From positions 4,092,001-4,156,000 of the forward strand of contig JAYWIR010000015.1 of the NCBI GenBank assembly GCA_036172245.1: a stretch of DNA of 64,000 bases, in the 5' to 3' direction. This DNA comes from Raillietiella orientalis (Eukaryota). Both the position numbers and the translations under genes were made by a program. This document shows positions 1-63,589 of the stretch, one piece after another. The notes below the pieces were generated by a model that saw nothing but the letters and a program-made list of their open reading frames with translations, made no database searches and had not been told where the DNA came from. Every line of letters begins with the position of its first letter. Positions within the stretch are counted from its first letter, which is position 1.

Positions 1-61
1 TTAGATGATTGATGAACTTGCAGCATCCCCATGTCATTTCACTGTCGACCGTTTCATCACG

Positions 62-320: not shown

Positions 321-1499
321 CATGAACAAATTTTCTTTCGAAGAATATTTTCTGTAGATGAAGCTCGGAAATACCCTGAAGAGTTTTCTCCTGAGTGGGC
401 GCAGGCTTCATTAATCTTAAACTTAGCACTTAATGAGAATCACCAGAAGAGAAAGAAAATAACTACGTGGAAAACATATGGCAAGACATTCATTGGTGAT
501 GGATCTAGGTTGTCGACAGTGGTAGCGGAAGCTCGAAGAACTTTTATTAGTTCTTATCGCAAAGTGCTATGCTAAGAGCTCGTGATGAAACTGGGTTCTC
601 GATAGCAGATGAGAATTCTAGGAAGACTTTCATTAGTTCTTATCTCACATTCCTATGCCTGAAGAGCAAAACACATAGTCATTAGATATGGATAGAGGAA
701 ATGAAACCTCTGATTCGGAATGCTTTAGAAGTGAACGGATCTTTGATCACGGGCTAGTATTAAGTCTGCATAGTGTACATCCAATCCCGTCTGTATAGCT
801 CCGATGTGGGGTCATATGGCAGGAATTTCGGTGCCCCTTCCTATCAGTAACCTTGCAATTGTGTTTTCACCTCTAGGATTATTGGGTCGGAATTTGTTTT
901 CCCTCATAACGAATGAATTTCTTCATAAAAGGATGCACCGAATCTTTTGCTTCTCAAGGAAAATGGAATGCACGCATCAGCAGTACTTGCTCAGATGAGC
1001 GGACTTGAAATTTTGTTCGAAACACGATTTCGTGTAGTCCTCTTTCAAAATAATTTGCAGTGCAAATAGTTTAGCAAGGAATCAATTCGAGAGGGAATCC
1101 ATTAGATCGGCTTCTCCGTATTTGCATCCCTGGACAGAGGTTGCAACGAATCACACCTTCGGCTTTATTGATGATTTCGATACGAATGAGAAAAGTGACG
1201 ATCCATAGTATTTGAAATTCCAGTTCCAAAAATTAAGTTTCGATTGCAAAGGTTCGGTACTAGTGTCGCATTCCCTTCTGTTCTGTTTTCTTTCTTGCTT
1301 TCATTCCGATTTTATCTTCTATTTCCACTTTTTATTCCATTCTTATGTTTAAAAATTCAGGTTCTGACTACACTCTTACTGCCCATTCAAAGCTGGAGCA
1401 CTGAGCAAGAGGATCATGACAGGTTCAGCAAAAGCGCTGACCTAAAACTGACATGCAAATTTTGAAATTCAAAGATAATGTATCTTAATTCGTGCCAAC

Positions 1500-22300: not shown

Positions 22301-25242
22301 ATCGTTTCAGCAAAATCAGTATCTGATCCACTGCATCTATTGATTTTTTAAGAGCGCATATATCCAGCCTCACATCTCAAGGGAAAAACTGTGCGAATAA
22401 TACGAAAATCCATTTTTTCAGCTCTAAGTACGGTACACTTCCGCATATAAAAAAGTGCTTATACGAAATGCACATTTCTTACTGAGAAAACCCACGTTAA
22501 AATACGATTGATTTAATTTTGAATTCTTTGAGTAACTCGTCACAAGGGAAAAAAAAACTGAAAGTTCTCTTTCCAAACATTCGGATTTTAAAAAAAAACA
22601 AAACGCACATCAGTCGTGCATCGGTTGCCAAGTCGATCAAAAAATTGCTTTTTTTATTAGTTGAGTATTTTGAGCTTCAAAGAATTTTTTAAGTCTGAGC
22701 CACAGAACAATGAGATTTCAAAGCAAGCATCAAAATAAATTCTCCAAAGGATTATTTTCAAAGGAAATAATTTTGCCATGAAGCATCCGAATCAGCTATA
22801 TTTTTCTTTCAAATCTTTCAATACGAAATTTACTCATTGAGAAAACATACATTCAGGAATATTGAATGCCACTGTGCTCTCCAACGGTTGTTTCCAACTG
22901 TAGAATTTGATTATACTCCACAAATTATTCTTTTCATTGAGCCATTCTCTGCAACGCTCACCATTCTTCTGTCGATTTCTTTAGCTTGAGTAAAGTTGGA
23001 CTTCATGTGCTATGAAGATCGCAAAATATCACTTCCAATTTTTTTAATTCGAAGTCGTGATCGATAGCAGGATTTTGCAGCAGTTCCTTGGAGTGGATGG
23101 GAAAACATTCATTCCCTCAAACTGGAATGAAACACTGATATTATTGCAAACATTTTTGGAAGGCGAGCACTTCCACGATGCAATCCTTTTTCTTGGAAAG
23201 ATGTGTTTCTCTTATTCGTCACTTCTTCCTACAAAGGGGATCAATATGAAATGTGGTAATTGAACATTTTTTTTCAAGGCGAGAAATAGCAGACAATATG
23301 GACAACCTTGATTTCTTCATTTGCTACATCACCACATTAGAGATAAAAGCGAGTTCCTTTGCAAAGGCTAATTAAGAGATTGATCAGTTTTTATTTTAAA
23401 AAAATTCCATTGATAACCATGATTAATCTAAAAATCTGTTAATCATTGAGGATTTGTATTTATATTTTGTTGATGAGGCCACTATTTCTTCAGTTAATTA
23501 ACTATTACCAGGTGTTCGATTAGTTAGTTTAGATTGCAGTTAAGATTGCCAGGTTTCCCGTTGGTTTTAGAGGTTGACACTTCAGTCTGAACTTATGTAT
23601 CGTTACATATATGCCTGTGCTGCTGTCTGTCGTGATATTCATTACTTTTCATGTTTCGTACGAATGTCTAATTATTTGAAAAAATGTCCCAGGGGAATAG
23701 ACAAGACAACTGTTTCCTCGAACAAAAACACCAACAGGGCAAGATGTGATTACATTTGAGCAACACTTTGATTTCGAGGGGAAAGCTGTGATAGAAGAAT
23801 AAATATGGGATAAGCACTAGGAATTCATGAATTAGAAAATGCAAGATATTCGGGAACTGCCCGATTCACATCCGGACTATGACCATCAGTGAGCATTAGA
23901 AAAAAACGGCAATAGGGCAAAGGAATCGAATGATGTGCAAGAGAAGGAGTCCACTCTCAAGGGGTACGAGGACATTTTCCAAGGCGGTGGAATTTGTGAA
24001 AGGAAAACTTTTGCATGGGGATCGTAATTCTCGTCGAAGCATGCAAGTTGGCTGTCCTACGTCTGAATGAAAATCTGAAGGAAAGTGAAAAAGTTCAGTC
24101 TACTCTGTTCAAATATTTCGAAAAGCAATGAAGATACGTTTTCAGGTGTAAGATTGCCTTCACACGCAATATTCAGAATTTTCACTCTTGTTTTCACTCT
24201 CTGTTTATTGTGTTAACAATAAATTTAGATTTTGCAAATTTTTCCCTGTTTTTATTGTAATATTCCCTCGGCAAGTATGGATGAACATCGCTGAAACTTT
24301 TAATAGCCTACTATCTGTCAAGCCGGGATCAATTTCGTATTGTGCATATAATTATATGTGCGAATAGTGCGACTATTCCATGAAACGAAATATTCCCCGG
24401 TACAACCCGATAATCCATGAATCTGTTTTGTTCAGTATTTTATGACTCTTAGAAAGGCTAGGTTTAGGATTTAGGTTTAGATTTAGGATCACAAAGGTCC
24501 ACAAATATAAACAACCTCAAAGAAAAGAAATGATTGAATTCACTCAAATACCATTAAAAGTGGAAGAAACGTAAACTGCAATTCATAAAAAAACGATTCA
24601 AATAAAAAATTCCTATATACTGAAACTTCACTGTATATTAGTTTAAAAACAAACAGTTAATTTGCACACTGCCATTCATAATGAAGTTCAGCAATTCTTC
24701 TATACCAATAACGAAAATAAAGACGAAACTTGACAAGCTCTTAATTCCTAAAAGGTAACAAAAATGACTTGTTGGTTACATGGCAACCTAATTGAAACTG
24801 AATATGATAGAACAAAACTAATTTCTAGAAAAAACTGAAGATTTTCTTCATTTCAATCCTCATTCTAAACTCTTAAAATACCCATGTACAATTTGAATTT
24901 GAAATTTTGGAAAATTTACAATCTTCAAAGTTCATAACAGTGACCTGAAAAAAAGAACAGAAAATAAGGTATATGAATAACTGATATTTAAAATTTTTTA
25001 TTCCCATTCCCCTTGCATCACTTTCTCACTTGACACCGGTTCTTATAAAATTTCCAGACAATATCAAGGAATGAAATACAAGTGTTCTAACCATTGGAAT
25101 TTCTGGATGAAATATGCACTTTGACATACAACTTGGAATCACTGAGGTTTCATGATCATTAACATTTCAAAGTATCACATTTAAAATGATTCCCAAATAT
25201 TTGAATATGCTATTAAATAGTGAAGGAGAATTATTTGGATGA

Positions 25243-27746
25243 TCATTTGCAATCAATATCACAGTGATGCTGCAGTTTACTTATTTTTTCTTTCAATTCT
25301 TTCTTTTGGAATAAGCAGTCATAAAGTTCTTTTTCTAAAAACTGCTTTTGGTCTCGAAGTGCAGCTAGTTTTTCCCGGGTATTCTGCATTATAACAGTTA
25401 GGTTTTCAATATTGGTAGTGTCCAATGACCTTGAAAATGCTAATAAGTATGCATTGCTGACACTAAACTTACTTAAGAGATGTTAGAAACACTGGATCAC
25501 TGTTCTGATCAGCAGTCTGTCTAGCTATTATAAAAAAAAATTACATACTCAATTTTTCATACATAACATACCAGCATTTTCGTTTGTTGTAGACGTATCT
25601 GAATTCATCACCATATTCTGACTTTTCGATTCTGTACATAGAGCACATCCCACACCATGAAGTGACACTCTAGGAGGAACCACAGGCAAAACACAGGTTC
25701 TATCTTGAACAGGCATAAGGATTCGCTAATATTTACTCAATTTGTTTTACCTAATTTGCTAAGATCTAATGAAGAGCTGCGTGCATGACCCCGTGAAGCC
25801 AACACTGATGTGTAGATTTCTGCATTTTGTTCAGATGTCACAGTGGCACTGATATTTGACACCACACTTGGAAGAAACTAAGCAATGAATTTGTAAATCG
25901 TTGTTTAAAAAACACATATAACCTATATAATCCTGTCACAAATTATACATTTATAAGTTATCCTAATCCCCAACAAAAAATTTTCCACCATAAGGAATGA
26001 ACATCGAATTGCATGCCTTTATGACCATGCAATAATATTGTTGTAACTATTATTTGAAAACAATTTTTAAGCTTACTGCTGCTCTTCATCAGAAAGTGCG
26101 AAGTAGCCAGGTGGGGGAGGTAACAGGCCTCCAACACATGTTGCTGTGGATGGGGAGCAAATGCATTAAAATACTTTGCTGACTTCATTACCTGGACTCT
26201 TTTTTGGAGTGGGTCTTTGAATAGATTTAATTTGATCAAAAGGATCATCCTTTTTTGCTGAAAGAGAATTTCCTAATTCAAATTTGAAATTCTCTGATAG
26301 TCTGTTGCTATATGATTCAGAAATATTTTCTGATGAAGGCTGGAGAGCAGGAAAATGCTGTACACTGCAACTGTCCTGGAAGATACATTTAAAAATTAGC
26401 CTGTGAAAAATGAATTAGCTCACACTAATATCTAAATTGACCTTTATTTCAACAAATGTAAGAAGTCTGGCTACCTGATTGATTGTGTCATTTTCAGTTT
26501 CTAAATTTGGACACAATTCTTCTGATGTTATGGAGTCTTTAGGAGAATCCAAAAATCTGGTCCACTGAAAGCGAAACATTCAATATGAAGACAATAGAAC
26601 TTCAGAATGTACAGAGAAAAAAATCCCCCACTCAAAATTCACGTGTTTAAAATAACTTGTTTTGTCAGCATAATCATCAACTAAATCCGAAAAATCTCAC
26701 AAATAATGTACGCAAAATGGAAATATTTTAAAAACACTATGCCAATTCAGAAATTACAAATGAAACAAAGTCTTTTTTAATATTATCAGTATTCTATTTT
26801 TACTCTCCCAGATGCTATTAATTTACAGAATATGTGCACTAAAAAAATTTCCAAAGTTAACAAAGAAATACTGATACTCATAAATTGCGTACTCCTTTAT
26901 TTTTCACTTTATTTTCATCATTTTCAAGGGATTGTTTTTTCTGCATTTTCAAAGGATTGCTCTCTGACAATTTAACAGATTTAGGTTGTAAAGACAATGG
27001 CAAAGAATCTGGAATCTCCACTTCATTTTTCCTCAATACAATAAGATGCATGGCAATTAAAAACTCATCCAAAGACAATGCTCCATCCATTGTAATATCA
27101 GAAAGTTTCCTACATTACATGAAAGCAGACAAGGTTAGAATTCTCAATAGCACACAACACTTAGCAGCTTTCCTAATAGTATACTTACCAAATTTTGGAT
27201 AATTCATGTGCAGGAAGCTTTGATTTTTCAAAAAAATGCTTGGCTACAGCACCTGCTATTGATTTTGTTACATCCGGCTGCATTTTAATGAAGTATTTCA
27301 TATAGTACTCTCGCTGTTCTTCCTGAATTATCCACACATCAAAATCTTCATCACTGGAATGCTTATCTGAAGATTCTTCTTCAGTACCAAGCAATTGTCT
27401 TTGTTCATCACCAGCTACAAACTAATTAACAAAAATTCTTCCTGAAAGCATTGAAGCAAACCATTTTGTTGATTCCACTGAGTCATCCATATCTTATTTC
27501 CTTTTGTGCATCTCGAAGAATTTGTTGGTGTAGCTGACTCACTATCTGAACTACTAAAGTTGGATGATTCATCAAACTGAGAATTACTTTCTGATTCCTG
27601 GCATGTACAAAACAACTGTATATATGAATTTAAAAATCAGTGAGAAATTTATGATATAAAAGAAACAGTCAAGCAATCCACAAAACTGTGGAAGAAATTC
27701 ATACAATTACTCTGCATGAGTCACTTGATAGTAAAAAAGGTGCCAT
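25243..27746 (-). CDS. REPS1: RalBP1-associated Eps15-homology (EH) domain protein (REPS1/2 family), spliced
   Basis: Phase-consistent GT-AG model: 27746-27711, 27597-27462, 27414-27189, 27109-~26893, 26564-26475, 26375-26192, 26143-26077, 25866-25751, 25703-25572, 25524-25473, 25429-25243. EH domain WIIQEEQREYY...[47 protein letters not shown]. Also IQRP..KK, LLPPPP, HARSSSLDL, PVVPPR and a C-terminal coiled coil. 5' start uncertain (accATGg at 27746). Confidence 0.88.
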
Positions 27747-29719
27747 GGTACTCTAAAATAATTTTACTATTCTAATGATTTCTAGAAGAATTTTACAAAT
27801 TTGTAGCTGTTAGTCAACTGCTACATGAAGCACATTCTACCAAATTATGGATTCCAATCTCTCTACTAATCTACCTATCATGTGAAGCTCGCAAATTTTT
27901 AGAACTCTTACCAAAACCTGAACTGTACATAAATGGCTGAATTCACTGGTGAAGTATAAACTTTGATTTCTAATTGTTTTATAAAATATTTGTAATGTTC
28001 CAGCACGTTAAAAATGTTGAAGCAATGGTGCAAAATACTTTTGTAAGCCTAGGCCCTGTTTCTCAACAGTGTAAACAATATTTACTCAGAAATGTACCAA
28101 AGTGATTCAAGGATGGAAAGGACTCTGTTTATTATGAGAATTTAAGTACTTTGTAATTAATTCTTCTTTCCTTTCGGTATACGCAGATGTAGTGATAATT
28201 CTTCGCCAAAAAACATAATCTCTTAGAAAAACTTTTTTATCTTTTGTATTCACCACACAGTTCAGTGAAAGTTAAGAACTGAAACGAGAATTTTACTCAA
28301 TCCATGGCATGAACTATTCAGATACCATTGTCAGCAGATAAATGATCCTGGGGCCCAATTTTCACTACACTGCTGTATTTGACGGCAATTACAGCAAAAA
28401 TTAATGAACATAAACTCTGTGTCTTGTTTTAACTATGTATGAAGGAATTTTAACACTCAAGTATAAATAAAATAATAGGACATTACGAAATTCCTAACAT
28501 ATTCTAATGTTCTAATATGTTCCAATCTACTTTGCCAATGTTTCAATACATCCACTTATGATAATTACAATCCACACCTAAGTTTTTTTCATGTAGTGCA
28601 TGCCAGCCATGATACTATGAACATCCACAGTTCTACGTTTACGTACATAACGTTGCGTATTTGAACCGAACCATTGCCTTAAAATTTTCTGGTTTGTAAA
28701 AGTTTCATTGCACTTAAAAAGGAAGATTTCGTTGCTGTTTCTCATCTACTGATTCCAAACAACATTTCGTTAAAACAATGGACTAATCGGATTATGCATT
28801 TCATCTATTCGAAACTTATTAACGTTTTTGCAACTACCAATGAACTGCGTCTATGTTTTTTTGGTTTTATTCAAGTTCAAATTCTAGTTTTCATAGCTTA
28901 ATTTTTGCCAGTTTTGCTTTTACTAGAAATGTTTTCCTTAAAAGTATAAACTCATGTTTCAATAATGCAAATAATTACTTATTAACCTTGTAATTCACAT
29001 TACAAAAGGTATTCAGTTCGCTATAATCCTTCCATGATGGCTTCAAGGAAATGTCAAATGCCCCTCAGATTAATTGCATTCCATTGGAACAATAACACTA
29101 AATAGAATTATTGAATATATTATAATAATTGCCATAGCATAATGCGCAGTAAAATTCTTCATCAACATATAACAGATCAATCATGAACATAATCTGAAAT
29201 TCTTTCTATTCTTGATTTATTTTTATTTATACGTTTTATTCTTAATTTATTTTTTTGCAGTCAGAAAATTGGACTATCTATTCGTCAACTAGGTGTTTTT
29301 TAAAAATGGATTAGTTGTTTGCAAATTGTCTTTTAAAATTGGAAAGCTGATGAAGCATGATGACTTCAGTTTCGAAATGAGTAATAATAAAAACTTCATT
29401 TAAAAGTTTCAAAGGGATTCCTGTGATTCCGTCTGTTTGTTTTTGTCTTCCTTTTTTGAGATCTCGTTTGTTCTTAGTGTGCCCTAATCATTTTTGCATG
29501 TAGCAGTTTGCTGATTTTGATATAGTGTCAAGTAATTACGGAATTTTTAGAAACAATATTTTTCGTGTTCATCATTAATTTTCTTCAATCTCGTATTTGC
29601 AGAACGTCTCCAAATAGTCCCTGTGTTGACATTCTTAAAACCAGGCACTCATTTGAAAATCTAGAAACTAGATAATCGTTCTAAGGTTAGGGCACCTCTT
29701 CTTCAGAACATCCACTATG

Positions 29720-38319: not shown

Positions 38320-39100
38320 GTAAGCAAAACGAAAACAACAACGTTTTCAGAAAGACTGCGGGAGTTACAGTCTCCTTCCTGGCGTCCTCAGCATCCTACG
38401 CAGGATGCATGCAAGTCTCTCCTTTTGACGCGAGAAGTGCGTCTATTTTGTGATGATAAGGAAGGATAACATGATGCGGATGGCGTTCCTGTTTTCTGGT
38501 CGCTTACGGCAGAAATTTTCGCGGCTGCGGATCCGCGGAGGCTGCGATCGCCGTCGCAGGGCGAATGAAGAGGCGTGTGATCACGTCTTCCAGGTTGTCC
38601 CTTAGGGATTGCAGGGACGTAGCAAGACAGCTCCCACATACTCCACAGGGCAATACGCTCGAGTGATGAGTGCGGGACTGTTCCCCTTTCATCGCACCTG
38701 GAACAGTCTGAGGCCCAGCTCCCCCTTGGTTCAGTGGTGACGATGTGAGTTGCAAGGGATGCAACTGCAACATCGAGTGCTGCCACTTCAGCGGAAGCGT
38801 GGAGTTGTCCAAAAGCATCGCAGGAATATCAAGGTTTTCTGGGGAATTCCAAGAGTCTCAGATGGGATGGGGAGGATGGGGATAGAAGCGTTGCGACGCT
38901 TCTATCCAGTGACTTCCGTATTCCTGCGAGCTCTTACCTTGCGGGTTGGTCGCTGTCTTCGTTCTCCCCTAGGGAGTCAGAGTAGCTGCATGTGGAATAC
39001 CTGCATCGGGCAAGCCTCAGTGGAAGTACGCAAGCAAAAGATGTCGGTCCTTGGGAACCGAGTATCCAGCTTCGAGGGTTTGGAGAGAGAGAGACGTGCA
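38320..39100 (-). mobile_element. 5'-truncated L1/Tx1-like LINE 3' end, related to the tail of the 56665-58204 element
   Basis: MLLDNSTLPLKWQ, ASDCSRCDERGTVPH and LACILRRML match VLKDTSILPLKWQ, TPD*LRCEERESFPH and LAGILERMQ at 57.2-56.7 kb. T-rich end on minus strand near 38325-38342. Confidence 0.7.
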
Positions 39101-51130: not shown

Positions 51131-53060
51131 GACGAGATGCTATGAGGGATTTCTCTCTTGGCTGTTCGTCCTTGCCACTCCTTCAGATGTTCGAGTGATG
51201 CAATCCACTGATCTCTCTCGGAGAGAGGGAGAGATTATATCAGTTGCGCTGAAAATTGTTTGTTATCTCTTCAGTTGCAGAAGATGATCGGGTAAACCTA
51301 GCTAGCAATTTCGGATCTTGCTGCTGGACCAGTCGTTAGTATGTGCTTGGAGATAAGAGAGACACGTATTCGAACTCTCGGTCCAAAATGAGTCACTGGT
51401 GCTTGAGATGCGAAGCGCCTCTGGAATTAGGCGTTCCTCAGGTTTGATTTGCTGATCAATCGCCAAAGAAATTCCGAAAAAACGTCTCAACACTCCGATA
51501 CTGTTACCAAGAGAGCATCTTGAGATTCCCAATGCTTGGAAATCCTCAAGTGGACAGCTAGAAGTAAAGCACCAATCATGCGATGAGAATCCAAGAAATC
51601 GAATCGTACGAAGATTTATCACATGATACGTGATTTGACTCCGCAGGCAACAAACCCAATGAGAATCTTCAGGAAGGATGCTAACAGCCTGTTCCGTGTA
51701 ATCATTCTGTGTGATGGATTCAGCAGTGCAAAGACCTGCTCTCACACCGGCTCGAGGGCATCCCACTTTTGTTGAGTTTCTGGGGATGCTTATAACGAAA
51801 AGCAAGGCTTACCAGGAATCTCGCGTACCTCTTTGGAGATACTTTGATGTCTGAATCTATCGCCAAGAATGAAGATGGATTCCTAAAATAATCATTTCTC
51901 CGTGCGTTTTGAATGATTTGGGGTGCCGGACCAATAAATTAGAAAATCTTAGTAAATGTGACTGATATGGCACATCGTTTTACCAATGACACTGTCCTTC
52001 CAGAGCCGAATTCCAAGCCATCATGTTCTGCATCATGGCGTGGAATTCGGATTCAGTGTCGTATCACGGGACCATCTACTCTTCCGGGCAGTTGGTTCTG
52101 TGACTTTTTGCTTAGAGAACGATCGAGAATGTATCCTGCATTTTGAATTGTTTCTTATTTATCAGATTCGCTCCATTATTTTGTAAATTGTGCAGACTCT
52201 TCACCGTGGCGAAGCCAGCATTTCGATGAACCCTCATCTCATTCTACTGCCTCTTAGTGTGCTGATAGCAGTCGTTCTTCGAAAATCTGGGTAAAAAATA
52301 TTAAGAATGAAAACCACGGAAACAGAAAATTCCTGGTGAATATGTGTTTCGCGTGCCGTGCGTTCAGCAATTTCTATAAGTATGACATGCGGGGACGATA
52401 CTTTACGCAATGGTGCTGCTTAAAAAAAGCGAGTATGCAGGCTGGAAAATAGAAGTTCGATTCTCTAAACGCCTCCAAGAACATGACTATGCAGACACAC
52501 CTATCAGTTTCCCTCCAGAACTGTTCGATTAGATTAGAGATCTGTTAGTATGAGTTCAAATTATTACACGTTGCTCTACATCCAAGCTTTCGATTCCCCA
52601 TCCGTAGAATGCCTCGAGGGTCCACTATTCATTCCCTGAAATGTTGTAAATTCACTGTTCAGCCCTGACTGCAATCTCACTGGGGACACTTCTTTTCAAC
52701 TTCACTTTGCCGATGAGAGATGGCGGCATGGCTCAGTGAGGTGCATGAGCAATGACTCCAACACTTTGAGGTGCTCGAGTTATTAAGCATTGCTCGAAAA
52801 AAAGGATGTTAAGCCCAAGAAGCCCGTTCTGAAGGAACTTAGCAGCAGTGACCCAAATAGAAATTCACTACCATCCGAAGAACTTCATATCGACTTGGCT
52901 AGTCTAATTTGATTTAGGAGTTAATTAGTTTGTCATCAAGGCAAAAGAAAACACACCTGGATATTATTTCAAGATCTCTCCTACTAGAATGGAAATCAGT
53001 CATTTTCGGAGGAAACATGCACTCGAGTTGAGCGTTGCGACAATGACGTCATGAGGTCAT

Positions 53061-53356
53061 AGGTGCCTGTGAAGGCTCCTGCTCCATCTTGAAACAGGAC
53101 GGGTCCCCCCGTTGTGGGATGTCCGCTCTCCGTTGTACGACCGGAGGGGGAACTCCCCACTCCTTGATTCCTGGAAGGACCCGGAGGTCGACTCCCATTG
53201 TTCCGGCCTTCATCGGGGGCCTCCGGCTTTATCCACCGCCGGTGCCACGCCCGAATGATTAGGCCAACGAGCGCCGTTGCAGGAGAAACTCGGAACCCAA
53301 CGACGCCGTGGCGTCAGTTTCTGCCGAAGTATTCGAACCCGCGACGCATGGTACCA
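53061..53356 (-). mobile_element. tRNA-headed SINE-like element, internal fragment (subfamily A, diverged)
   Basis: Aligns with 57886-58178, including GGTTCGAATAC on minus strand. ORF 53198-53482 shares translated text with ORF 57933-58412. Confidence 0.85.
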
Positions 53357-54979
53357 AAGCAAATGCTTGCTGGGTTTTATATGACCTCAAAACTCCCTGC
53401 ATTTGAAGATCTTCATACTGTTGAAAAATTCCATGCATTGAGTTTCAGTGTCATACAAATTGCAAGCAAGTTTGGTAAATGAAAAGCGTTTACAGTGTCA
53501 ATAATGTTGCTTCTAGGTACCTAGTGTATGCAGAAATCACATTCGGCATTCCTCATCTCTGTTGCAGTCTATGTTCTTTTGACCTTTGCTGCAAATCGAC
53601 ATTAAGTAACTCATAAACGGCTCACTGTATTCATAATACAGATTCTTCAGCTATCGACCACGATCGAAATTGGACATCACGATCACCAAAATAATTGTGT
53701 GCAGAGTACGTGCACGTCAGCTCAGATGTACATGCTGCTGTGAAACTTCCTAACTGTTACATTCTCAATATCCAACTTGGGGATGACGAACAGTCTTTGG
53801 TGCTTGAGAGTTTCACAACTGAAAAATCAGTCAGACAACTCATGCTGCACTCGAAAGAGCTGATGGCTTATTGTTCATTCTGTATCGAACAAAGTAGTGT
53901 CTACTAATCAAGGAATCAAGATAGAAGCATCCTGAAAACAACTATTGGTTAATCAGTCTGGCTAACATCCTCCAATTAGAGTAGATGCAACATGCTCCGA
54001 TTTCCAATGATGGTAGTCTTTTCTCATGAGATGAGGAGCGAGAAATTCGATCTTCTCTTTGCTGAAGCTATCAAAACGGAAATCAATCTTCGGATCTGAA
54101 GAGCTTAATGCCAGAGGAATGGCCAGAATGAAATGTGCCCTGTTATTTCGTTTCGGATATGCAACGTGGAAAGAAAAATCTTTTCTCAGACCATACATTA
54201 TCACTGAGTCGACAACTGCGGCAGACTCTTCCTCGGAGGGACCAGCGAAGAGCTGCGCGAAGTATTAGGAATGGGAGGTCCCGCCGTTGATTTTACGAAG
54301 AACAGTAGCGCAAGAAGCATGATAGGACCATGGAGGAAAAGCAAAAAAGATGAGAACTGAAGAGTCCAGAAAACCAATAGACCATCGTGCGAGCAGGATG
54401 GTAGATCCACTTCCAGTAGGAAGCTCTTCCTGCATCTCTTGCAAAAAGTTAGTGACCGCTTGCGGAAAACACAACACATATTTCACCTCAAAAATACACT
54501 ATTAAAATAAGAATTTAGAACAGAACTCCAATGAAAGAGACCCTGCACACGGAGACAAGCGTTTCGCAAGGAGATGCATACCATTCTATGAAAGGAGAAG
54601 AGGGAAAATAGCTGCAAGCGTCAGCTAAGTCGAACGAATAGAAAGTGAAACAACGAAAAGAAAGAAACTGAGCATCTTGATGGAATCAAGATCGTCATGG
54701 AGAGCACGGACGATTTCAGCGCCTTCAGATAACTGGATTTTAGTTTCCCATTATTCTTCAAAGCCTCACTCTCCTTGACAAACTGAGTCATAGAAAGAGG
54801 AAAGTGAAATGGAAGCAGAAAGAGTCCATCAAGAAGGTTGCCTAGCTTGCACAAGTTCTCTTTCAAAATTTTAAAAGTTCTGTGTACTGAGTGACCGGAA
54901 GGATTGCATAAAATACAGGAGCCAGAATCCTTACCATCTTCATCTACATGTCCTATGCATTTTGTTCTCTTCGGATAAG

Positions 54980-55060: not shown

Positions 55061-56650
55061 TGGAATCGTTTCCAAAAAAAGCCTTCGTACACATCTTCTG
55101 TTGGTACCAGTTTTTCTTGTGCGTTGATGCTCCGGGAGATTCCTTCATCAGGAGACTGTCCCAATCTGTGGATCCAATTGCTATCGCGAGCCAAAATGTA
55201 TGTTAGAGGCAAACATGGGGCACGTAATTTTTCGAGGTACAGCCGCGGGGTCTTCAGCCCTCGCATCATCTGTTCATTTTGGAGCCTCAGGACGTCGACA
55301 GTGGGAATAATTAGGCCTCTAACGGTCACTTGAACATCCACGTCGACAAAGAGGCAGAGATGAATTTGCCTGTGGTTTCCTTGCTTCTTAGAGCACTTCT
55401 GAACGCTTGAGGGGTGCTCTCGAAGGCAGCAACATCCATAGTGAGGACGATTCCCCCAAAACACTTTCTTCTCCTTGCTCAGTACCAGATGGTTCGGAGA
55501 CGAGAATCCATTCCAAAGATGTACTTGTCCCAGGAAACCTCCTTGCAGATCAACCACATCGAAAGGTTGGCCTCGAAAGAATATATGGAAACTTCCGTCT
55601 ACCTCCTTCTCGGGAGCAGCAGAGACGCGTTTATTGCAACGTGCACTAAAAGAAGGGTGGCTGTGACATGACATCAACACTGTTTGCATTTCCTCCCAGT
55701 GTTCTGGGATGGAACTCAGCAGAAACTCTGCTTCTTGCTCATCTGCCTTTCCTAACCACTGACGGATTCTGAGGTGCTGACTCTGGCTTCAAGGTTGCAG
55801 GACATCTCTCTCCTCGTTTGTGAAAAACCCTTCGAAACGAAACTTCTTTCCTCGATATTTCCTGTTTGCTTTCCTTGGTCTGTTCCCCGACCTTCTCATC
55901 CCGACATGCCGGAACACTCGCTCAGAGCAGATAAAGGAAATGGAAACGCTACCAGTGGAGGTGGGGTGTCTTCTGTTCCAAGAAGAAGGGTCAGAACCCT
56001 TATCGGAGAGAGGACTGGTGCAAAATTAAAGGATGAGGTGGGATGGCCGGTAAATGGTCGAGTGAAAGAGAGGCACGGTCCGGAACCCATATGGTGGTGA
56101 ACAAGATCCCTGAGGGCCTGGGTCTCCCACGTGCTCAAGAGTAGGGGTCGCCGCATATGGAAGATCAACACTTGTGTTTCAGCCACACTTGAAAACGGGA
56201 GTGTTCCATCGCGCATGCGGTCCAGGAACAGAGAGTTGAATCCCGGAGTCGCGGAATGAAAAACCACAGGACAAATAATGGGGAAGAAGAGATCATCGAA
56301 CTCCCGTACTTCCGTTCCCCGGATGCTGCACGTCACGCCCGACGGCCTATCTCGCTGCTCCATCCTGCTCCGCTCCTCTCCGCGGCTCGGAGATGAACTG
56401 GAGGAGGATGGCAGAGCCCTATCTCAATGTGACCACATGTGCCTCAGATGTTGCGCGGGACCATGACCACAGCCTCCAGAGAAAGTGCATCTCGGAGTTG
56501 TCACCAGGTCGCTCTGGGGCGTTCATTGCTGCAAATAAACTTGCAACTTTCGTGGTAGCAGGCCCCACTACGACAAACTCATCAATGGACCTGCCGGGTC
56601 GCCGGTACACAGACCGACGGGCTCACCGCGGCAGCAAAGGGAAGATGGGC
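55061..56650 (-). mobile_element. Decayed L1/Tx1-like ORF2 (end of APE domain and linker)
   Basis: GRSIDEFVV (RID motif), an SD-like motif in a shifted frame, and LWRLW (WR/KLN-like) near 56600-56470. Confidence 0.4.
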
Positions 56651-56664
56651 GAAAACAAATATGG

Positions 56665-58204
56665 AAAAAAATAAATAAATAAAAATAAACAAAAACACTT
56701 GGGAGGAGCGGGAAGGGATCACTGCCCTCTGGAGTCTGCATCCGTTCCAGGATGCCAGCAAGGTCCGTCCGGATAATTCCCAGGTGGGACCATCTGGCCA
56801 TCATACACAGGAAGAGAACTGAGAACTGGATGATATTCTTTTCGCTGCTTCCTCTATTGGCTTCGCTCCATGTCGCCACAGTCCCGCAGATTCAGCAAAG
56901 TGCTGCTAGGGCTGCAGCTGACTGCAGAATGTCCCTCAAGAAGAGGAGTTGTAAGACATCCCTGGGGGGGGGGGGGAGGGGGACTGTCAACCGGGATTCG
57001 GAGGGTCGCTGCAAAACATTCCCATAGGGGTCAGAGGGCAACAGCAGATGAAGTCCACTAGCAGAGAAATGCGGAAAGGATTCGCGTTCCTCGCATCTGA
57101 GTCAGTCCGGGGTCGCCCCTACCCTCTGGATCCAGTGGTATCGGCGCGCGTCGCAGGGGAAGCCCCAGTGCAACAACAGCAGGGCCAACTGCCACTTCAG
57201 GGGGAGGATGCTCGTGTCCTTCAGCACTTGGGGCCACTCCAGCTCTTCTGGTAGAATGCCGAGCAGCTCGCCCCAGTGCTGAATTCCCCGTGGAGGAACA
57301 CTCGGGGTCGCTAAGTACCTCAGAGCCGGTCGCATGCCTCGCGGCGTACGTGGCTCTTTTAAACACACTGTTTTGTTTCCACGCTTCTCACCTGCGTGCA
57401 ACCCCGCAGGGGGCGTGTAATTCTTCAGGATAGGGGGCACCCCGGGATGGGGGTCCGCCTTATGAATCCAGGAAGGGTTCGCAGTCCTTTCCTCTCACGC
57501 TTGGGGAGGGATCCCCCCGGACGGAGGGGATCGCACCTCCCACCCTGGTTGTCTCCGAAGGGGAATCCCGAAGGGAATCTTCTTCCTCATTCTCTCCGGA
57601 GGTACACCCCCTGATGGGAGTGGTCCTGTCCATTTCAGCTTCTCCAAAGGGAACCCGGAAAGGATCCGCTAGTAGGAATTTCTTCTCCGGAGGGAACCCG
57701 CAAGGGAACCGCTCCTGTTCACTCCTCTGAAGAGAACCCCAAAGGGACGCTTCCGAAACTAAGAAGGGGCGCTGCAGCTTCCCTCAGGAAATCGCTCTCG
57801 CTTGCTTCCTTGTGCACTCTGTGAAGAGGCGACGACTCGGAGGGACCCCCGCAACAGGGGGGTCCGCTCCTTTGAACAACTGGAGAGGTGCCCGTGAGGG
57901 CTGCTCCATCTTGAAACCGGAGGGGTCCCTCGGTGGGGGGGTCCGCTCTCCGTTGCACGACCGGAGGGGAAACTCCCCACTTCTTTATTCCTGGGAAGAC
58001 CCGAAGGTCAATTTCCCATTGTTCCGGCCTTCATCGGGAGGCCGCCGGTTTTATCCACCGCCGGTGCCACGCCCGAATGTCTCGGCCAACCAGCGCCGTT
58101 GCAGGAGAAACTCGGAACCCAACGACGCAGTGGCGTCAGTTTCTGCCGAAGTATTCGAACCCGCGACGTACGGTACCACGCGCTGAAGCCTTAAAACTTC
58201 CGAC
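56665..58204 (-). mobile_element. Composite non-autonomous retroelement: tRNA-like head + hairpin array + L1/Tx1-like ORF2 3' end + T-rich tail
   Basis: Head ttaaggcttcagcgcgtggtacc...GGTTCGAATAC (58194-58151). Hairpin array ~57950-57400. Then WGELLG...LPLKWQLALLLLHWG...PD*LRCEERESFPHF, and a T-rich end at 56695-56665. Confidence 0.75.
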
Positions 58205-58209
58205 GTGGG

Positions 58210-59658
58210 GCTTGGGGTCGCTGCACCCGCCGTGGTCCAGTCCCGTGGTCCAGTCACTCATTAGCTTCTTCCTGCCTACCACCTCACAGGAGACTTCCCG
58301 CAGCGACCTTGACTGCTGCCTAGTGCCCTCCTCTAAAAGAACAGCATTGCAGCGGGGGGGTCGTCTCCGCCCACGTGCTCCTGTCAGGACACTCCAGGAC
58401 CTTCCGGAGTGAGCAACGGGCGTGGTTGCCATTTCGCAGGAGGTTCCGCCTCTTGGGAGAAGAAACGCGGGTGGGATGGGGTTCTTGCAGGCGCATCCTC
58501 AATCCAAACGAACGACACCGCAGTGATGCAGAGGGAGACGAGGTGTGCAACCCCTACGCCCATTTAGGGGGATGTCCTGCTTCTCCTTTCCTCCTGACCT
58601 CGTCAAGTGATCGTGGCGTCCGTTGCATATGAGCCGCCCGTGCAGGAACGAGGTCTTCGTCTGTTGGATGCGAGGGAGTGGGGGAAGGAAGCGCCGAACT
58701 TACCGTACATCAGGAGCTGGAGGGACCGTCAACGGATCCCGGAGAATGCGGCAGGTTCTCCTGGTGCCAAGTCCTTGCACCCACGTCGCCCTAGCAGACA
58801 TATGCCGCCGTTCATCCGCCTCTGGCTTTGGATGCCATTTATCGTGGAGCGTCGTCGCAGGGGGGGATTGGGTGGAAGGAGCTTGAGCGTGGGCTGGTTC
58901 GTCCACAGCTCCCCTAAGGTTCCTTTTTATCCCATCTTTCAGCGTGAGTCGTCTCCTTGCGCGGAACACGAGGGCGGCGGAGGTCGCGGATGACTTCCCT
59001 GGATGGAAGCGGCCTCACTCTCCTTCCACTCCCTGGCAACCGCCTCGATCTCACGCGGCAGGAGGCAGTCGGTTCTCAAGGAGTGCAGCTGCTGGTCAGC
59101 CTAAAGGGACGGACATCCTCCTGATCGTGTCCTAAAAGGCATTCTCGGGGAGTCGGAGTGCCCCTGCAGTGCGGACTTAACCCAACGGCGCGTTTCTGTA
59201 GCCTGCGCGCCGAAGAATCCTCAGCGCGTGCGTCCCTCGAGGATACTGCCAGCGCTGTCCTGGAGGATCTTTCGGAACTCGGATCGCTCGGTGTTTCGAC
59301 ACTTGGAATTCCGGTGTTTCGAAATCAGGGACCGCTCCTCCCCGAACGAGCAGCCGCCAGCGAGTCGCCGGCGGGCAACCGGGGAATCTTCTTCCCCAAC
59401 GGCCATTGCGGGAATGAAAGAAAAGTTCTGCGTGCAGAGCGCGCGGGCCGTGGGTCCGTTGCAGGGGAACGATGCTAGAGGTCCACGCACGAATTGCCTG
59501 GAAGGGAACGATTGATGGTTCTGGAGGAAGGCGGGAATTATCCTGACATTTCCGTTCTCTCTCCTGCACATACATTGGCTGCTACTCCACCATGCCGCCG
59601 CGTTTACTCTACTGAAAAGCGTGCAATAAAATACGACGTTTTTGTTTTTCGTTTTTTT
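58210..59658 (+). mobile_element. 5'-truncated L1/Tx1-like LINE 3' end
   Basis: VAYEPPVQERGLRLLD (P..GGLGL.D-like) and GESECPCSADLTQRRVSVAC (zinc-binding-like). AATAAA at 59625-59630, T-rich tail at 59639-59658. Confidence 0.55.
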
Positions 59659-59744
59659 AGCAAAGCAGGACGCTAGATGTCACTTAGGACTGAGGAGGGT
59701 TTCCGACTCGCAGGTCGGTCGCCCTAGAGACCTACAATGGGGTC

Positions 59745-60420
59745 GCCCGCACTGGCGGCCGTGTGGCTACCGTCTCCCCGCGTGGCACCAAGCGTTGATG
59801 GTTCGAATCCCACTCGGGGAGGGTCGACGCCAGAGAAATGAGTGCGCCGTGGGTGTCGAGACTCGCAGTATGACACTGGTTGGCCTGGAGGCTTCGGGTG
59901 CTGCACTGGTGGAAACTGGAAATCGGATGACCTAGTTGACCGGCCGGGATTAGATGTTGATCCTCCGGGGTCAACTTCCGGTACCGTGGTCCTTCCAGGA
60001 ATTAAGGAGCCCTTCGGGGTTTTCCTACAGCTGTGAAAGTGAAGCCGCCTCCCACCCTCTGGGAGGAAACCCTCTATCGCGTAGAATGGAGCTGGTTGAT
60101 ACCGCCTCGGGAGGGTTGCCTCTCCAGAGTGCAAGAAGCGAGTTTTTCCCTTCGTGGAGCACCCTTCAGACGAAACGGGAAGCTGATCCTTTGGAGTTCA
60201 CTTCAGAGGAAGAAACAGGGAGCGGTTCCCTCGCGGGTTCCCTCTGGGGAAGAAATTCCAGGAGCGTAGATCCTTCCCCGGATTCCCTTTGGAGAAGAAA
60301 TGAGGAGCAGTTCCCTTCCGGGGAGAAGAGGGAAGAGGCTCCCTTCGGGGTTTTCCCTACCGGACGTCATAGGATCTCTTTCCTCCGGAGTCTTCCTGGA
60401 TTCATAGGGCGGTTCCCTTA
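59745..60420 (+). mobile_element. tRNA-headed SINE-like element, 3'-truncated (subfamily B)
   Basis: TGGCggccgtgTGG box A-like at 59753 and a perfect box B GGTTCGAATCC at 59800-59810. 60200-60420 aligns with the hairpin array at 63180-63460. Confidence 0.8.
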
Positions 60421-61399
60421 ACTCAAACACTCACCTTCGAATGAGTTTACGAATGCGGCACAATAGACAGGAATGCAAAAATATGGAGTGTCACGAGGGG
60501 TGGGGAGACCGTGTTTCTTCGGGGGTCCTAACGCATCATTGCTATCCCTGCGCTGACGTGGAGAGGAACGTACAAGGGTTCGAATGATGACAACCTAATT
60601 GGAGCACTGAGATGAAGGCTGCTGTCCCTTTGGATGCTCTACAGGATTAACTCGTGGTTAAGTAGCTGGAGATTAATTGTGATTTTTTTTTCCTTTTTTG
60701 CTGCGGTCGCTGTGCATGTCTATGTGGTGGCACAACTCGTTGTTTACCTTTTTGCAGCAATATTACTAATGGTGGGGACAACAAGAGTACTTTTTTAGTA
60801 GCGGATGGCTTAGAAGGAAAACCGGCCAGATTTGACAACCCCTTTTACAAGCTGAAGTGACACTCTACCGTGAGACTAGACAACGGGAGCATCTGGAAAC
60901 TAGAGTTGTGTTGCCCGACTTACCTCTGAGAAGAATCCGTCTCTCAAATGAAAGGGATCAATGCCCCGAAGTGTCACACACATACACACATCTGCACGAT
61001 GGAAAGTCCTTTTGGTTTTTCTTTTTTGAAATAAAAACGTTTATAATTTTATGAAAACAACAGTCAGGAGATTTATAATAATGAGTGTAAAAAACATCGT
61101 ACATAATTCTTGCTAGACACTTACGTCAACATAATAATACGTCCTTGAACAAACAAGACAGTAGCAGGTTCCAGTGAAAATGTCTCTTATTTTCAAAGTA
61201 GGTCTATATATGACATTAGCCGACAATCGATGATATGAGTGAACGAATGTTCAACTTATTTGTCACCTGATTAACACCCTTCCGACACTGATTTCCAGCA
61301 TAATGTATCACAAGAGTCTCATATAGAATCATGCGTTAGAATGGGGACCAGAGAGACCTCAAATAGAAGAATGAGCACAGAGCTGCAATTCAGCAGCAA

Positions 61400-62550
61400 C
61401 TCTATGACTAGAGCATCGTTGGGGAATAACTTGTTTTCAGAGAAATATTAGAGCAGTTAGTCACGAAAGAAGCAAATGGGCCGGGAACTGACAAACGAAG
61501 TGATTTCTCGTCCAGCTGACTTCTGTTGTTGTTGTTCATAGCCAGCAGATCCAGCAGCCTGCAGACTCCATGTGAAGCCTCAACTGCTCGTCCAAATGAG
61601 AAAGTCTGTCGCATTCAAGAGGGACGGGGCTGGAAACCAAGGCAGCATGGAGGATGCCTCCCTGTGGCTGTCGCGAAACTGCAATTCTGGAACTTCGTGC
61701 TTCTCCGTTACATTGTCGTCCCTGCTATACCTGAAATTTATCTGGAGATTCATCGCCTTTACAGCCTCCATCACGGAAGCATAACCACTTCCTTTTCCTT
61801 AGAGCTTTTTACTTCTCATTGTCTTTATTCTCGGATTGCTGGTGGTATCTCTGCAAGCACGATCACTGCAATGCTCCGCACGCTCATGTGTTATTTTCTC
61901 AGCAACAAGAGGCACTCTGTTCGGGGTTTTGCAGCACAGATTGAAAGTCTATGTTGCAAAACTGCTTTGCCAGTGGACTTTGTATTTTTGCATGCACACG
62001 AGTTCACCTAGACAAAAGGCTACTTTTCCTCTTTAGAAGCGCGACCGCAGTATCACATGCAGCAACTTGAAAGTTAAACCCACCGTGATTCTCATGCTAG
62101 ATGGAATCACTTTTTCAGCAGGAGGGTGCATTGCAGAGGCTTCTAGTTCAGAGTAAGGACTGTTCTCGCTTTCTCTGAAACCGTCGCTCCGGGTGATACA
62201 AGCTTGCCAAGCACGCAAATGTCGAAATGCATCCTCATCTACTTGCTTGGCGAAATGACTACCGAAAAGATTTTCGGCTGCAGAATCAAGCTGCAGAAAC
62301 ATAATGCAAATCGTCCTAGTGCCATTACGAAGGTCACAGTTGACACGTCCCTGGTGTGTGGGAAGACACAGCAGGGATGCGTCAGTTGAGAACGTGGTGT
62401 TTGCCATTAACCGAATTCTGAACGGAAAACTTCCAAGAGTCTACTCATCAACAAAACCTGCCTTTGCAAGTTTTTCTAGTTGAGCACCCAACAAATGCTG
62501 TCTGATTTGGCACAAAAATTCTCAAAACTGAAAATCTACGATGGATAAAG
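61400..62550 (-). mobile_element. Decayed RT remnant of an L1-like element
   Basis: ORF 62033-62407 ICIMFLQLDSAAENLFG resembles the hydrophobic-D..KAFD motif. Otherwise degenerate. Confidence 0.25.
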
Positions 62551-62700
62551 TGGCAGTTTACGTGACAGCGTAGCCAGCTCTTTAATAACTCAGCTCTCCT
62601 CTTTTATAAAAGACCTTTTCTCTATTCCTACATAATTTGCGCTCTGTTGCACCTATGCAATCTGCGTTTTGAATTGCACTTTTGGCAATGCTAATCCCGT

Positions 62701-63589
62701 GTCGGAGGCCTTGTGGTTAAGGCTTCCGCGCGTGGTACCGTACGTCGCGGGTTCGAATACTTCGGCAGAAACTGACGCCACTGCGTCGTTGGGTTCCGAG
62801 TTTCTCCTGCAACGGCGCTGGTTGGCCGAGACATTCGGGCGTGGCACCGGCGGTGGATAAAACCGGCGGTCTCCCGATGAAGGCCGGAACAATGGGAAAT
62901 TGACCTTCGGGTCTTCCCAGGAATAAAGAAGTGGGGAGTTTCCCCTCCGGTCGTGCAACGGAGAGCGGACCCCCCCACCGAGGGACCCCTCCGGTTTCAA
63001 GATGGAGCAGCCCTCACGGGCACCTCTCCAGTTGTTCAAAGGAGCGGACCCCCCTGTTGCGGGGGTCCCTCCGAGTCGTCGCCTCTTCACAGAGTGCACA
63101 AGGAAGCAAGCGAGAGCGATTTCCTGAGGGAAGCTGCAGCACCCCTTCTTAGTTTCGGAAGCGTCCCTTTGGGGTTCTCTTCAGAGGAGTGAACAGGAGC
63201 GGTTCCCTTGCGGGTTCCCTCCGGAGAAGAAATTCCTACTAGCGGATCCTTTCCGGGTTCCCTTTGGAGAAGCTGAAATGGACAGGACCACTCCCATCAG
63301 GGGGTGTACCTCCGGAGAGAATGAGGAAGAAGATTCCCTTCGGGATTCCCCTTCGGAGACAACCAGGGTGGGAGGTGCGATCCCCTCCGTCCGGGGGGAT
63401 CCCTCCCCAAGCGTGAGAGGAAAGGACTGCGAACCCTTCCTGGATTCATAAGGCGGACCCCCATCCCGGGGTGCCCCCTATCCTGAAGAATTACACGCCC
63501 CCTGCGGGGTTGCACGCAGGTGAGAAGCGTGGAAACAAAACAGTGTGTTTAAAAGAGCCACGTACGCCGCGAGGCATGCGACCGGCTCT
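62701..63589 (+). mobile_element. tRNA-headed SINE-like element, 3'-truncated, near-identical inverted copy of 57322-58194 (subfamily A)
   Basis: Best-preserved head gtcggaggccttgTGGTTAAGGCttccgcgcGTGgtaccgtacgtcgcgGGTTCGAATAC. 62717-63589 is the reverse complement of 57322-58194 with no indels and about three substitutions seen. Confidence 0.9.

Follow-up and report, generated by a model that had tools for sequence, protein, structure and literature searches.

The repeat lying near positions 56665 to 58204 of the window, the 64-kb stretch of DNA analysed here, raises the question of whether it is one element or two. A first-pass annotation had described it as the longest copy of a tripartite retroelement, in which a tRNA-like polymerase III head would be followed by an array of hairpins and by a coding tail derived from LINE ORF2. 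Our analysis points to a repeat of ordinary kind and gives no support to a new three-part element. With a probability of roughly 60%, it is a dispersed, non-coding, GC-rich family of ~0.9-kb units, most like a SINE or another non-autonomous non-LTR retroposon, and the copy in question, called C below, is nested in an older repeat.

The five related GC-rich copies in two subfamilies reported earlier were recovered, at or near the same places, by repeat finding, blastn, alignment and nhmmer:

43-418, plus strand: copy A of subfamily 2; its box B is degenerate, GTTTCGAAT (repeat finding, alignment, nhmmer)
53053-53357, minus strand: copy B, a subfamily 1 fragment that lacks both ends and shares 89% identity with C (blastn, nhmmer)
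57313-58210, minus strand: copy C of the ~0.9-kb unit, 898 nt (blastn, alignment, nhmmer; edges from the flanking direct repeat and a contig of sequencing run X1 ending at 57308)
59735-60439, plus strand: copy D, subfamily 2 (repeat finding, alignment, nhmmer)
62696-63589, plus strand: copy E, the best-preserved unit (repeat finding, blastn, alignment)

A family profile run over the 64-kb window with nhmmer returned these five copies and nothing else (spans 62682-63482 for E, 58223-57429 for C, 59735-60439 for D, 53357-53053 for B and 43-418 for A). The unit is ~0.9 kb long (894-898 nt), has 60% GC and is non-coding, since the ORFs within it have no Pfam match; the Pfam scan, which covered 115 of the 127 window ORFs of at least 90 aa and three ORFs of 69-77 aa from the same block, gave nothing above cut-off. 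Copies E and C are identical at 870 of 873 positions (99.66%, blastn), and the two subfamilies are ~75% identical to each other. Four of the five copies have a common 5' end, and the 3' ends differ among all five (alignment, nhmmer). The 3' end of the unit is reached by two window copies, C and E, and the tail is present on C only; within the window, blastn found no similarity between the unit 3' end and the tail. The unit carries no poly(A) or simple-repeat tail, and neither terminal inverted repeats nor a Helitron-type CTRR end were seen by eye. A text search of the literature, which is not a sequence comparison, found no description of the family, and GGTTCGAATAC matched unrelated papers only. 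Bacterial and archaeal genome contigs searched with a 25-mer of the array gave no match.

Further copies were found in X1, the only sequencing run matched, which consists of DNA contigs from a related organism and shares 0.05 of the sampled words; RNA runs were not among the matches. The family is present on many X1 contigs at 80-99% likeness, and 136 contigs map on 56400-60500. At the listed variant places cover reaches 5-14 contigs at most places in the array (57460-57761), 1-3 elsewhere in the unit and 1-3 in the tail, and is none at 58455-59687 and 56400-56536.

The head of the unit carries two promoter-box motifs. Box B, GGTTCGAAT, is exact in copies B, C, D and E, which fit the consensus GGTTCGANNCC at 10-11 of 11 positions, and copy D carries a perfect GGTTCGAATCC at 59800-59810; the box B said to be shared by all five copies is thus present, but in degenerate form in copy A. 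Upstream of it, a motif in E and D fits the box A consensus TRGCNNAGTGG at 7 of 9 specified positions. In copy E this box A-like motif lies at 62706-62716 and box B at 62750-62760; in copy C the former has been lost by a 6-nt deletion, and box B lies at 58151-58161. The two motifs are 44 nt apart start to start, with 33 nt between them, equivalent to tRNA positions 8 and 52, and the copies begin ~3 nt ahead of the inferred tRNA position +1. In the alignment, the box blocks are the parts conserved between the two subfamilies. Judged from sequence, a box A-like motif and a box B at canonical spacing near the 5' end, kept in two subfamilies, support the look of a polymerase III-driven SINE. A sixth exact GGTTCGAAT 9-mer, at 60577, was considered as a family member and rejected as unrelated (56 of 200 shuffles score as well).

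Descent of the head from tRNA-His, which had been proposed from a D-loop-like TGGTTAAGGC and a GTG in the anticodon position, is not supported. The D-loop-like sequence is present in copy E alone (62712-62721), the 6-nt deletion of copy C falling at that place. GTG does occupy tRNA positions 34-36 in the register set by box B, but the ancestry amounts to this register argument: the anticodon stem is absent, and neither tRNA detector supports it. ARAGORN found no tRNA in the heads at default, -ps or -ps80 settings, and its calls at -ps60 were inconsistent (His for A; Ala and Ser for D; Thr for E; undetermined and Arg for C; none for B). The Rfam tRNA covariance model gave no match at the gathering score, at E<=10 on 1.1 kb, or at E<=10 on two 101-nt heads. 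By both methods, therefore, the check for tRNA similarity past the two promoter-box motifs came out negative. The consensus fold of the first 45 nt is a single, conserved long hairpin, not a D arm and an anticodon arm, with no cloverleaf; in copy E this 5' hairpin spans 62703-62728, and at four pairs of the head changes on both sides preserve the pairing. A 22-mer of the head also matched the metagenome contigs L001 and L002. The two contigs, which have only that stretch in common with the head, represent a single unrelated locus in two copies and carry no tRNA; the matches were therefore discarded as chance.

The hairpin array, in contrast to the tRNA claim, held up. The body of the unit is rich in short GC hairpins and includes 2-4 degenerate units of ~43 nt, found in copy E at 63196-63365, and copy E ends in a 3' hairpin (63551-63589) followed by TTTT. 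The minimum free energy of the unit fold has a z score of -3.2, equalled by none of 20 shuffles. The antisense strand folds equally well (z = -3.3), which counts against the full unit being a polymerase III transcript. Internal TTTT runs on the sense strand number 0 in the 896 nt of copy E, 0 in B, 3 in D and 1 in A. In subfamily 2 one of them lies at roughly one shared place (234 in A, 276 in D), D having two further T runs, and polymerase III would probably stop at these. No hammerhead, HDV-like or other ribozyme was matched in Rfam.

These features can be compared with those of tRNA-derived SINEs (SINE2/tRNA). The unit resembles them in its dispersal and lack of coding sequence, in its common 5' end and several subfamilies, in having a box A-like motif and a box B at tRNA spacing, and, in one copy (C), in having a 12-bp flanking repeat. 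It differs in its length (~0.9 kb against the usual about 100-700 bp), in a head that forms one long hairpin and receives no tRNA call from ARAGORN or Rfam, and in the internal T runs of subfamily 2. Some SINE/LINE pairs, known as 'stringent', share a 3' hairpin without poly(A), and the unit, with its 3' hairpin and no poly(A), resembles these too. What stands of the earlier SINE reading is the dispersed, non-coding family with a polymerase III-like start; the long, LINE-tailed tripartite form does not. In the mechanism that we favour, transcription from the internal promoter would give a structured RNA, the reverse transcriptase of a partner LINE would recognise this RNA through its 3' hairpin, and target-primed reverse transcription would insert the unit, leaving a short target duplication. 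Copy C would have been inserted in this way into an older, unrelated repeat with a decayed ORF, the 'tail' being the downstream half of its target.

Several observations bear on this last step. A direct repeat flanks copy C:

57301-57312, minus strand: downstream direct repeat, AGCGACCCCGAG
58211-58222, minus strand: upstream direct repeat, AGCGACCCCAAG, a candidate target-site duplication of copy C (11/12 match)

This repeat, AGCGACCCC[A/G]AG, flanks the 898-nt unit of C alone; when the 40-nt flanks are shuffled, as good a score arises once in 1000 trials. For the whole composite of unit and tail the best flanking match is a 7-mer ~100 nt away, equalled by 96 of 1000 shuffles. One X1 contig, aligned to 57308-57457 at ~83% likeness, departs at 57308 and continues for 133 letters unlike the tail, and among the 8 of 155 contig pieces listed none crosses 57322. 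Observed and expected CpG counts are 68 and 80.2 for the unit, 28 and 52.6 for the tail, and 14 and 22.4 for the upstream flank of C; tail and flank are CpG-depleted and the unit is not.

Set against these results, a true tripartite family of ~1.5 kb, with a ~0.6-kb LINE-derived coding tail, C complete and E, D, A and B truncated at their 3' ends, is improbable. Its tail would be present on one of five copies, copy E would stop at the junction while otherwise nearly identical to C, and the direct repeat and the departing contig would both mark an end of the element in its middle. The CpG depletion of the tail, its two stop codons and the second tail copy described below, with neither head nor array alongside, also speak against it. 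The differing 3' ends of all five copies would suit it; in retroposed copies, though, it is normally the 5' end and not the 3' end that is lost, so that the truncation it calls for runs against the usual direction. In its favour, too, head and tail ORF are co-oriented and one frame is open across the junction (58 codons upstream), and there is precedent for the architecture: Kojima 2018 (PMC5786205) describes SINEs, such as Bov-tA and WALLSI, that join a small-RNA head to the 5' and 3' parts of a LINE. The element as first proposed would have resembled these; here, however, the LINE-like part occurs on one copy, where it lies outside the direct repeat; it predates the unit, and we could find no LINE homology in it. 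Within the data covered the junction occurs at a single locus, as expected of chance nesting. A nested insertion into an older repeat is the most likely origin of the junction in C, and the 'LINE tail' looks like neighbouring older DNA in which copy C landed.

Some observations qualify the case for nesting. The motif GCGACCCC occurs five times between 56144 and 59746, always on the minus strand, where 0.68 occurrences are expected; the repeat bracketing C could consequently be a recurring motif, not a duplication. Its one mismatch, in a unit that is 99.66% identical to E, weakens the case further, and the CpG contrast would be uninformative on co-insertion should gene conversion have overwritten C. 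A simple retroposon history, for its part, is countered by the lack of a flanking direct repeat at E, D and B (280, 349 and 101 of 1000 shuffles, respectively, score as well), by the absent poly(A) or simple-repeat tail and by a length that is great for a SINE. The upstream flank of C showed no similarity to the DNA upstream of the second tail copy near 38.8 kb (64 of 200 shuffles score as well; tblastn in three frames, none at E<=1). An empty-site form of the older repeat, without the unit, would read AGCGACCCCRAG / GCAGCGACCCCRAGTGTTCC.

The tail itself is best described as belonging to a different repeat, with the following parts:

56665-56700, no strand assigned: simple sequence, A-rich on the plus and T-rich on the minus strand, just past the end of the tail ORF stretch matching metagenome protein P0001
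56700-57300, minus strand: the 'tail', the degraded ORF of another, older repeat (translation, P0001 match, second copy, CpG)
38380-38842, minus strand: a second, diverged copy of the tail ORF (tblastn: three collinear protein blocks in three frames, including DCSRCDERGTVPH)

The DNA alignment of this second copy is matched by none of 200 shuffles, and no SINE-like unit adjoins it. The tail piece is thus repeated in the genome and also occurs in a metagenome protein. In C the tail holds one frame of 309 codons with only two stops, both TGA (57102-57104 and 56892-56894), and includes a G19 run at 56964-56982. A CX2CX7H-like motif at 57069-57104, whose first Cys codon reads TGA in C, is intact in the copy at 38.7 kb. 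Its position after a P-x-K-W/hydrophobic stretch is what we take to be the pattern of the L1/Tx1 ORF2 C-terminus, and in this the tail resembles that domain, but the fourth Cys that a CCHC zinc knuckle would have, at H+5, is absent from both copies. Although the long frame and the motif exist, the claim of an L1/Tx1-like ORF2 tail found no support in any search made for a LINE or RT match. At E<=10 the tail had no match in Pfam, zf-RVT and RVT_1 included, nor in PDB; phmmer against 1.84 billion proteins gave one match, P0001, an unnamed metagenome ORF of 87 aa, and no LINE; word-indexed searches at near, shorter and longer lengths gave no LINE/RT match. A protein-pattern scan of metagenome contigs for the tail found none, and a search of bacterial, archaeal and viral contigs found nothing. 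The Pfam scan of window ORFs given above (115 of 127 of at least 90 aa, and three of 69-77 aa) likewise found no RT or EN domain near it. Structure prediction was uninformative: the single-sequence AlphaFold2 model of the tail has a mean pLDDT of 46.3, too poor for fold comparison, and the ESM Atlas scores of P0001 are at most 0.80.

Copy C might also be a one-off chimeric retrocopy, formed when the reverse transcriptase of a LINE, having copied the last ~0.6 kb of the LINE RNA, jumped to the 3' end of a unit RNA. Template-switch chimeras of the U6/L1 type are known for L1 (PMC4476161, PMC13174262), and copy C is similar in that a small structured RNA unit lies co-oriented with a 5'-truncated coding piece, the junction being within 9 nt of the unit 3' end and the unit 5' end being present. 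Such an event is nevertheless unlikely here. It should have left its target duplication around the composite, which has none (96/1000), and not around the unit, which has one (1/1000); in-frame stops and low CpG would not be expected in a fresh copy made from active LINE RNA, and the decayed coding piece of C has both; and the tail ORF is followed on its sense strand by T-rich sequence where an A-rich tail is expected. We hold similarly doubtful a reading in which the ~0.9-kb unit would be a polymerase III retroposon of unusual length, with a conserved 5' hairpin in place of a tRNA head and only the A and B boxes retained, and in which copy C would record the birth of a composite with the coding 3' part of an autonomous element.

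Spread at the DNA level, by segmental or inverted duplication or as another class of transposon, with coincidental boxes, would account for the inverted position of C and E, 4.5 kb apart and 99.66% identical, for the confinement of all five copies to 43-418 and to 53-63.6 kb, for the lack of a target duplication at E, D and B, and for the missing poly(A) tail. We regard it as very unlikely, given the presence of the family on many contigs of a separate run, X1, at 80-99% likeness, the long-term amplification implied by two subfamilies only ~75% identical, the lack of terminal inverted repeats or a Helitron-type CTRR end by eye, and the repeat that brackets copy C. Under the retroposon reading, the near-identity of the inverted pair C and E would best fit local gene conversion, not two fresh insertions. 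There is very little room for a reading in which head and array, as promoter and monomers, would form a LINE 5' UTR, with C an internally deleted LINE of the bipartite ingi/RIME type. The short degenerate tandem units resemble 5' UTR monomers, the T runs of subfamily 2 speak against polymerase III, and bipartite non-autonomous LINEs are described in the RTE, Ingi, Vingi and R2 clades (PMC5786205), but X1 cover is higher at most listed places of the array (5-14 contigs) than in the tail (1-3), the opposite of what is expected if LINE 5' UTRs are rarer than LINE 3' ends, no RT or EN domain was found among the window ORFs scanned, no search connects the tail to a LINE, and a direct repeat flanks the unit.

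For annotation, the preferred reading, a SINE-like family with copy C nested in an older repeat, means that the ~0.9-kb unit should be masked and named, and that a 1.5-kb 'tripartite' consensus should not be built. The inverted, near-identical pair C and E offers, on a small scale, a possible example of local gene conversion between repeats. If the unit is truly transcribed by polymerase III over 0.9 kb, from a head to which neither tRNA detector responds, it would be an example of a SINE head that has drifted while keeping its promoter boxes; and if the composite reading of copy C were true, it would be the kind of step that creates new SINE tails or bipartite SINE/LINE hybrids.

The repeat family is real: all five related copies of the first-pass annotation (A-E) were recovered by repeat search and blastn, and an nhmmer profile built from the five-copy alignment gave exactly five matches in the 64 kb:

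43-418, plus strand, copy A
53357-53053, minus strand, copy B
58223-57429, minus strand, copy C
59735-60439, plus strand, copy D
62682-63482, plus strand, copy E

Copies C, E and B make up subfamily 1 (B and C are 89% identical), and subfamily 2 consists of A and D, which share about 75% identity; across the subfamilies, D is 80% identical to C over the array, the hairpin-rich body of the unit. The sequence GGTTCGAAT is exact in four of the five copies (B, C, D and E), with the variant GTTTCGAAT in copy A. A sixth exact 9-mer, at 60577, was rejected, having no further family similarity and being equalled or bettered by 56 of 200 shuffles. Just downstream of copy A lie two 77-nt direct repeats (496-572 and 582-658; 71% identical, 86 nt apart). 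We read the family as a SINE-like non-autonomous retroposon, with a probability of about 0.6.

A tripartite family of tRNA-like head, hairpin array and LINE ORF2 tail had been proposed. The tail, a decayed minus-strand ORF (56700-57300), is found on copy C only, one of the five, and comparison of the sequences says that the unit-tail junction (57313/57312) is not part of the family and that copy C would have landed in an older repeat. Copies E and C are identical at 870 of 873 positions over 57322-58194, and E stops there, in AT-rich unique DNA. The unit in C is bracketed by a direct repeat with one mismatch, matched in quality by 1 of 1000 shuffles (40-nt flanks):

58222-58211, minus strand, upstream direct repeat, AGCGACCCCAAG
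58210-57313, minus strand, copy C unit, 898 nt
57312-57301, minus strand, downstream direct repeat, AGCGACCCCGAG

SINEs on bipartite non-autonomous LINEs, the architecture first proposed here, exist elsewhere according to Kojima 2018 (PMC5786205); unlike those, the defining junction does not recur here, and a true tripartite family is unlikely. Equally improbable is a one-off template-switch chimera: chimeras that join L1 to small RNAs have precedents (PMC4476161, PMC13174262), but copy C lacks a duplication around the unit-tail composite, where the best repeat was equalled by 96 of 1000 shuffles.

Further evidence comes from X1, the only related public sequencing run, analyzed as contigs and evidently from a relative or of low coverage. 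One X1 contig, the only one that bears on the junction, has 295 letters, aligns to 57308-57457, including 9 nt of C absent from E, and continues with 133 letters unlike the window, departing at most 5 nt from the direct-repeat boundary. No junction-bridging contig was present among the 8 of 155 contig pieces listed. Contig cover at the listed variant places was 5-14 at most places in the array (57460-57761), 1-3 elsewhere in the unit and 1-3 in the tail. The unit has 68 CpG where 80.2 are expected, the tail 28 against 52.6, and the 238-nt flank upstream of C 14 against 22.4. TpG+CpA is in excess in both flanks, which resemble each other and look older. That the upstream flank is itself part of the tail's older element was not borne out by comparison.

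Copies C and E (tracts 57322-58194 and 62717-63589) lie 4.5 kb from each other in opposite orientations. At the 5' end their identity falls abruptly: only about two thirds of the first ~33 columns agree, and within these a 6-nt deletion removes the box A-like motif from C. This pattern suggests two older copies in which local gene conversion has homogenised an 873-nt tract, not two fresh insertions; if so, the case that the CpG contrast makes for late insertion is weakened, and the other four points for nesting stand.

The motif GCGACCCC occurs five times, always on the minus strand, between 56144 and 59746 (0.68 expected; 0 of 100 shuffles reach five). Two of these flank copy C on either side, and a third adjoins copy D at its 5' end, oriented opposite to it. 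The repeat around C could consequently reflect a motif that recurs in the older sequence instead of a duplication, and GCGACCCC itself might represent an older-repeat relic, a target motif or a repeated A-T-P peptide. A repeat that is not a retroposon at all seems slightly less likely still than the tripartite and chimeric readings.

The tail frame runs from 57494 down to 56568, 309 codons with only two stops, both TGA and both at positions that are Cys in relatives. A phmmer search of 1.84 billion representatives gave one protein, P0001, an unnamed 87-aa ORF on a 2870-nt JGI metagenome contig, 54% identical to tail residues 119-197 (E = 1e-17). A second, diverged copy is present in the window, without an adjoining unit:

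38380-38842, minus strand, second tail-ORF copy, three protein blocks, collinear but each in a different frame

In it DCSRCDERGTVPH stands opposite the tail's X-LRCEERESFPH, and 0 of 200 shuffles reach the DNA alignment of the two. The long near-open frame, P0001 and the second copy together indicate that the tail is a decayed fragment of an element that is repeated and once had coding capacity. The second copy carries a CX2CX7H motif and lies within 38-40.2 kb, a GC-rich block without a Pfam domain. A 19-base G-rich run within the tail ORF (56964-56982, plus strand, 88% G) encodes in frame a proline run and has almost no X1 cover.

The LINE ORF2 identity assigned to the tail found no support: it matched nothing in Pfam or PDB at E<=10, nor in word-indexed searches at near, shorter and longer lengths. 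Its likeness to the L1/Tx1 C-terminal pattern is no more than a lead; both copies miss the fourth Cys of a CCHC knuckle, the sense strand after the ORF is T-rich, not A-rich, and the AlphaFold2 model (pLDDT 46) was too poor for use. Neither an RT nor an EN domain turned up in any part of the window, and an internally deleted LINE with the head as its 5' UTR is the least probable of the alternatives. The Pfam scan covered 115 of the 127 stop-to-stop ORFs of at least 90 aa and, from the same block, three shorter ones (69-77 aa). All stayed below the curated cut-offs; the sole match listed was DUF6973 (62036-62440, E 0.036), which scored 14.1 bits where 27 were required.

The window, eukaryotic DNA, has 43% GC and a CpG observed/expected of 0.77. 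Its 4-kb blocks range from 0.64 to 0.85 in this ratio, except for 24001-28000, which is AT-rich (33% GC) and reaches only 0.39. The stretch 58455-59687 (1.2 kb, 59% GC), located between copies C and D, is CpG-rich (0.92 over 58205-59745), is without X1 cover, has ORFs without a Pfam domain, and is conceivably a CpG island or a unique gene part.

The unit is best preserved in copy E:

62696-63589, plus strand, copy E unit

It has 60% GC and a CpG ratio of 0.84, and its ORFs on both strands gave no Pfam match. Its RNA folds at -393 kcal/mol; 20 shuffles gave -362 +/- 9.8, none folding equally well (z = -3.2), and the antisense strand folds equally well (z = -3.3). Of the hairpin array described earlier, the many short GC hairpins, numerous around the repeat units, were confirmed, and the tandem content proved modest, E and D each having a pair of 41-nt units (61-63% identical to the reference unit), with a 13-nt doublet in addition. 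Copy E ends in a hairpin (63551-63589) directly followed by TTTT, which is absent from its sense strand over 896 nt.

In the head, a box A-like motif in E and D matches 7 of 9 specified positions of the consensus TRGCNNAGTGG, and box B matches GGTTCGANNCC at 10-11 of 11. The boxes start 44 nt apart, with 33 nt between (compare tRNA positions 8 and 52), the copies start about 3 nt ahead of the corresponding position +1, and the GTG reported at the anticodon does fall at positions 34-36 in this register; these blocks are the best conserved between subfamilies. ARAGORN found no tRNA at default, -ps or -ps80, and its -ps60 calls were mutually inconsistent (A His; D Ala and Ser; E Thr; C Arg and one without assigned type; B none). 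Rfam gave no tRNA at the gathering score, at E<=10 over 1.1 kb, or with two 101-nt heads, though ~10-bit matches were being listed. The consensus fold of four heads places the first ~45 nt in one long hairpin, not a cloverleaf, with four pairs changed on both sides yet kept; by alignment, T-arm pairs are kept in subfamily 2 (3-4 of 5) and lost in subfamily 1. Given the box match and spacing, a promoter-box reading is reasonable, but failed tRNA detection and the hairpin fold leave the suggested tRNA-His ancestry unsupported. A literature search with the box B 11-mer gave only unrelated matches. Two near-identical metagenome contigs (L001 255-276; L002 345-366), otherwise unrelated to the window, have an exact 22-mer in common with the head, including GGTTCGAATAC, and were rejected; box B-like strings this long do arise by chance.

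A SINE-like retroposon of this kind would be transcribed from an internal promoter at the unit's 5' end, and its structured RNA would end at the 3' hairpin or just past. For subfamily 1 a type 2 polymerase III promoter is plausible; it is doubtful in the case of subfamily 2, both copies of which carry TTTT at a roughly equal place (A 234, D 276; D has two further T runs), a point against polymerase III transcribing the whole unit. A partner LINE may recognise the 3' hairpin and reverse-transcribe and insert the RNA, in copy C into the older repeat. Among known elements, tRNA-derived SINEs whose 3' end is recognised by a LINE come closest. Literature searches by word gave nothing specific to the unit, and the family would be new, at most, as a further case of this known SINE-like kind.
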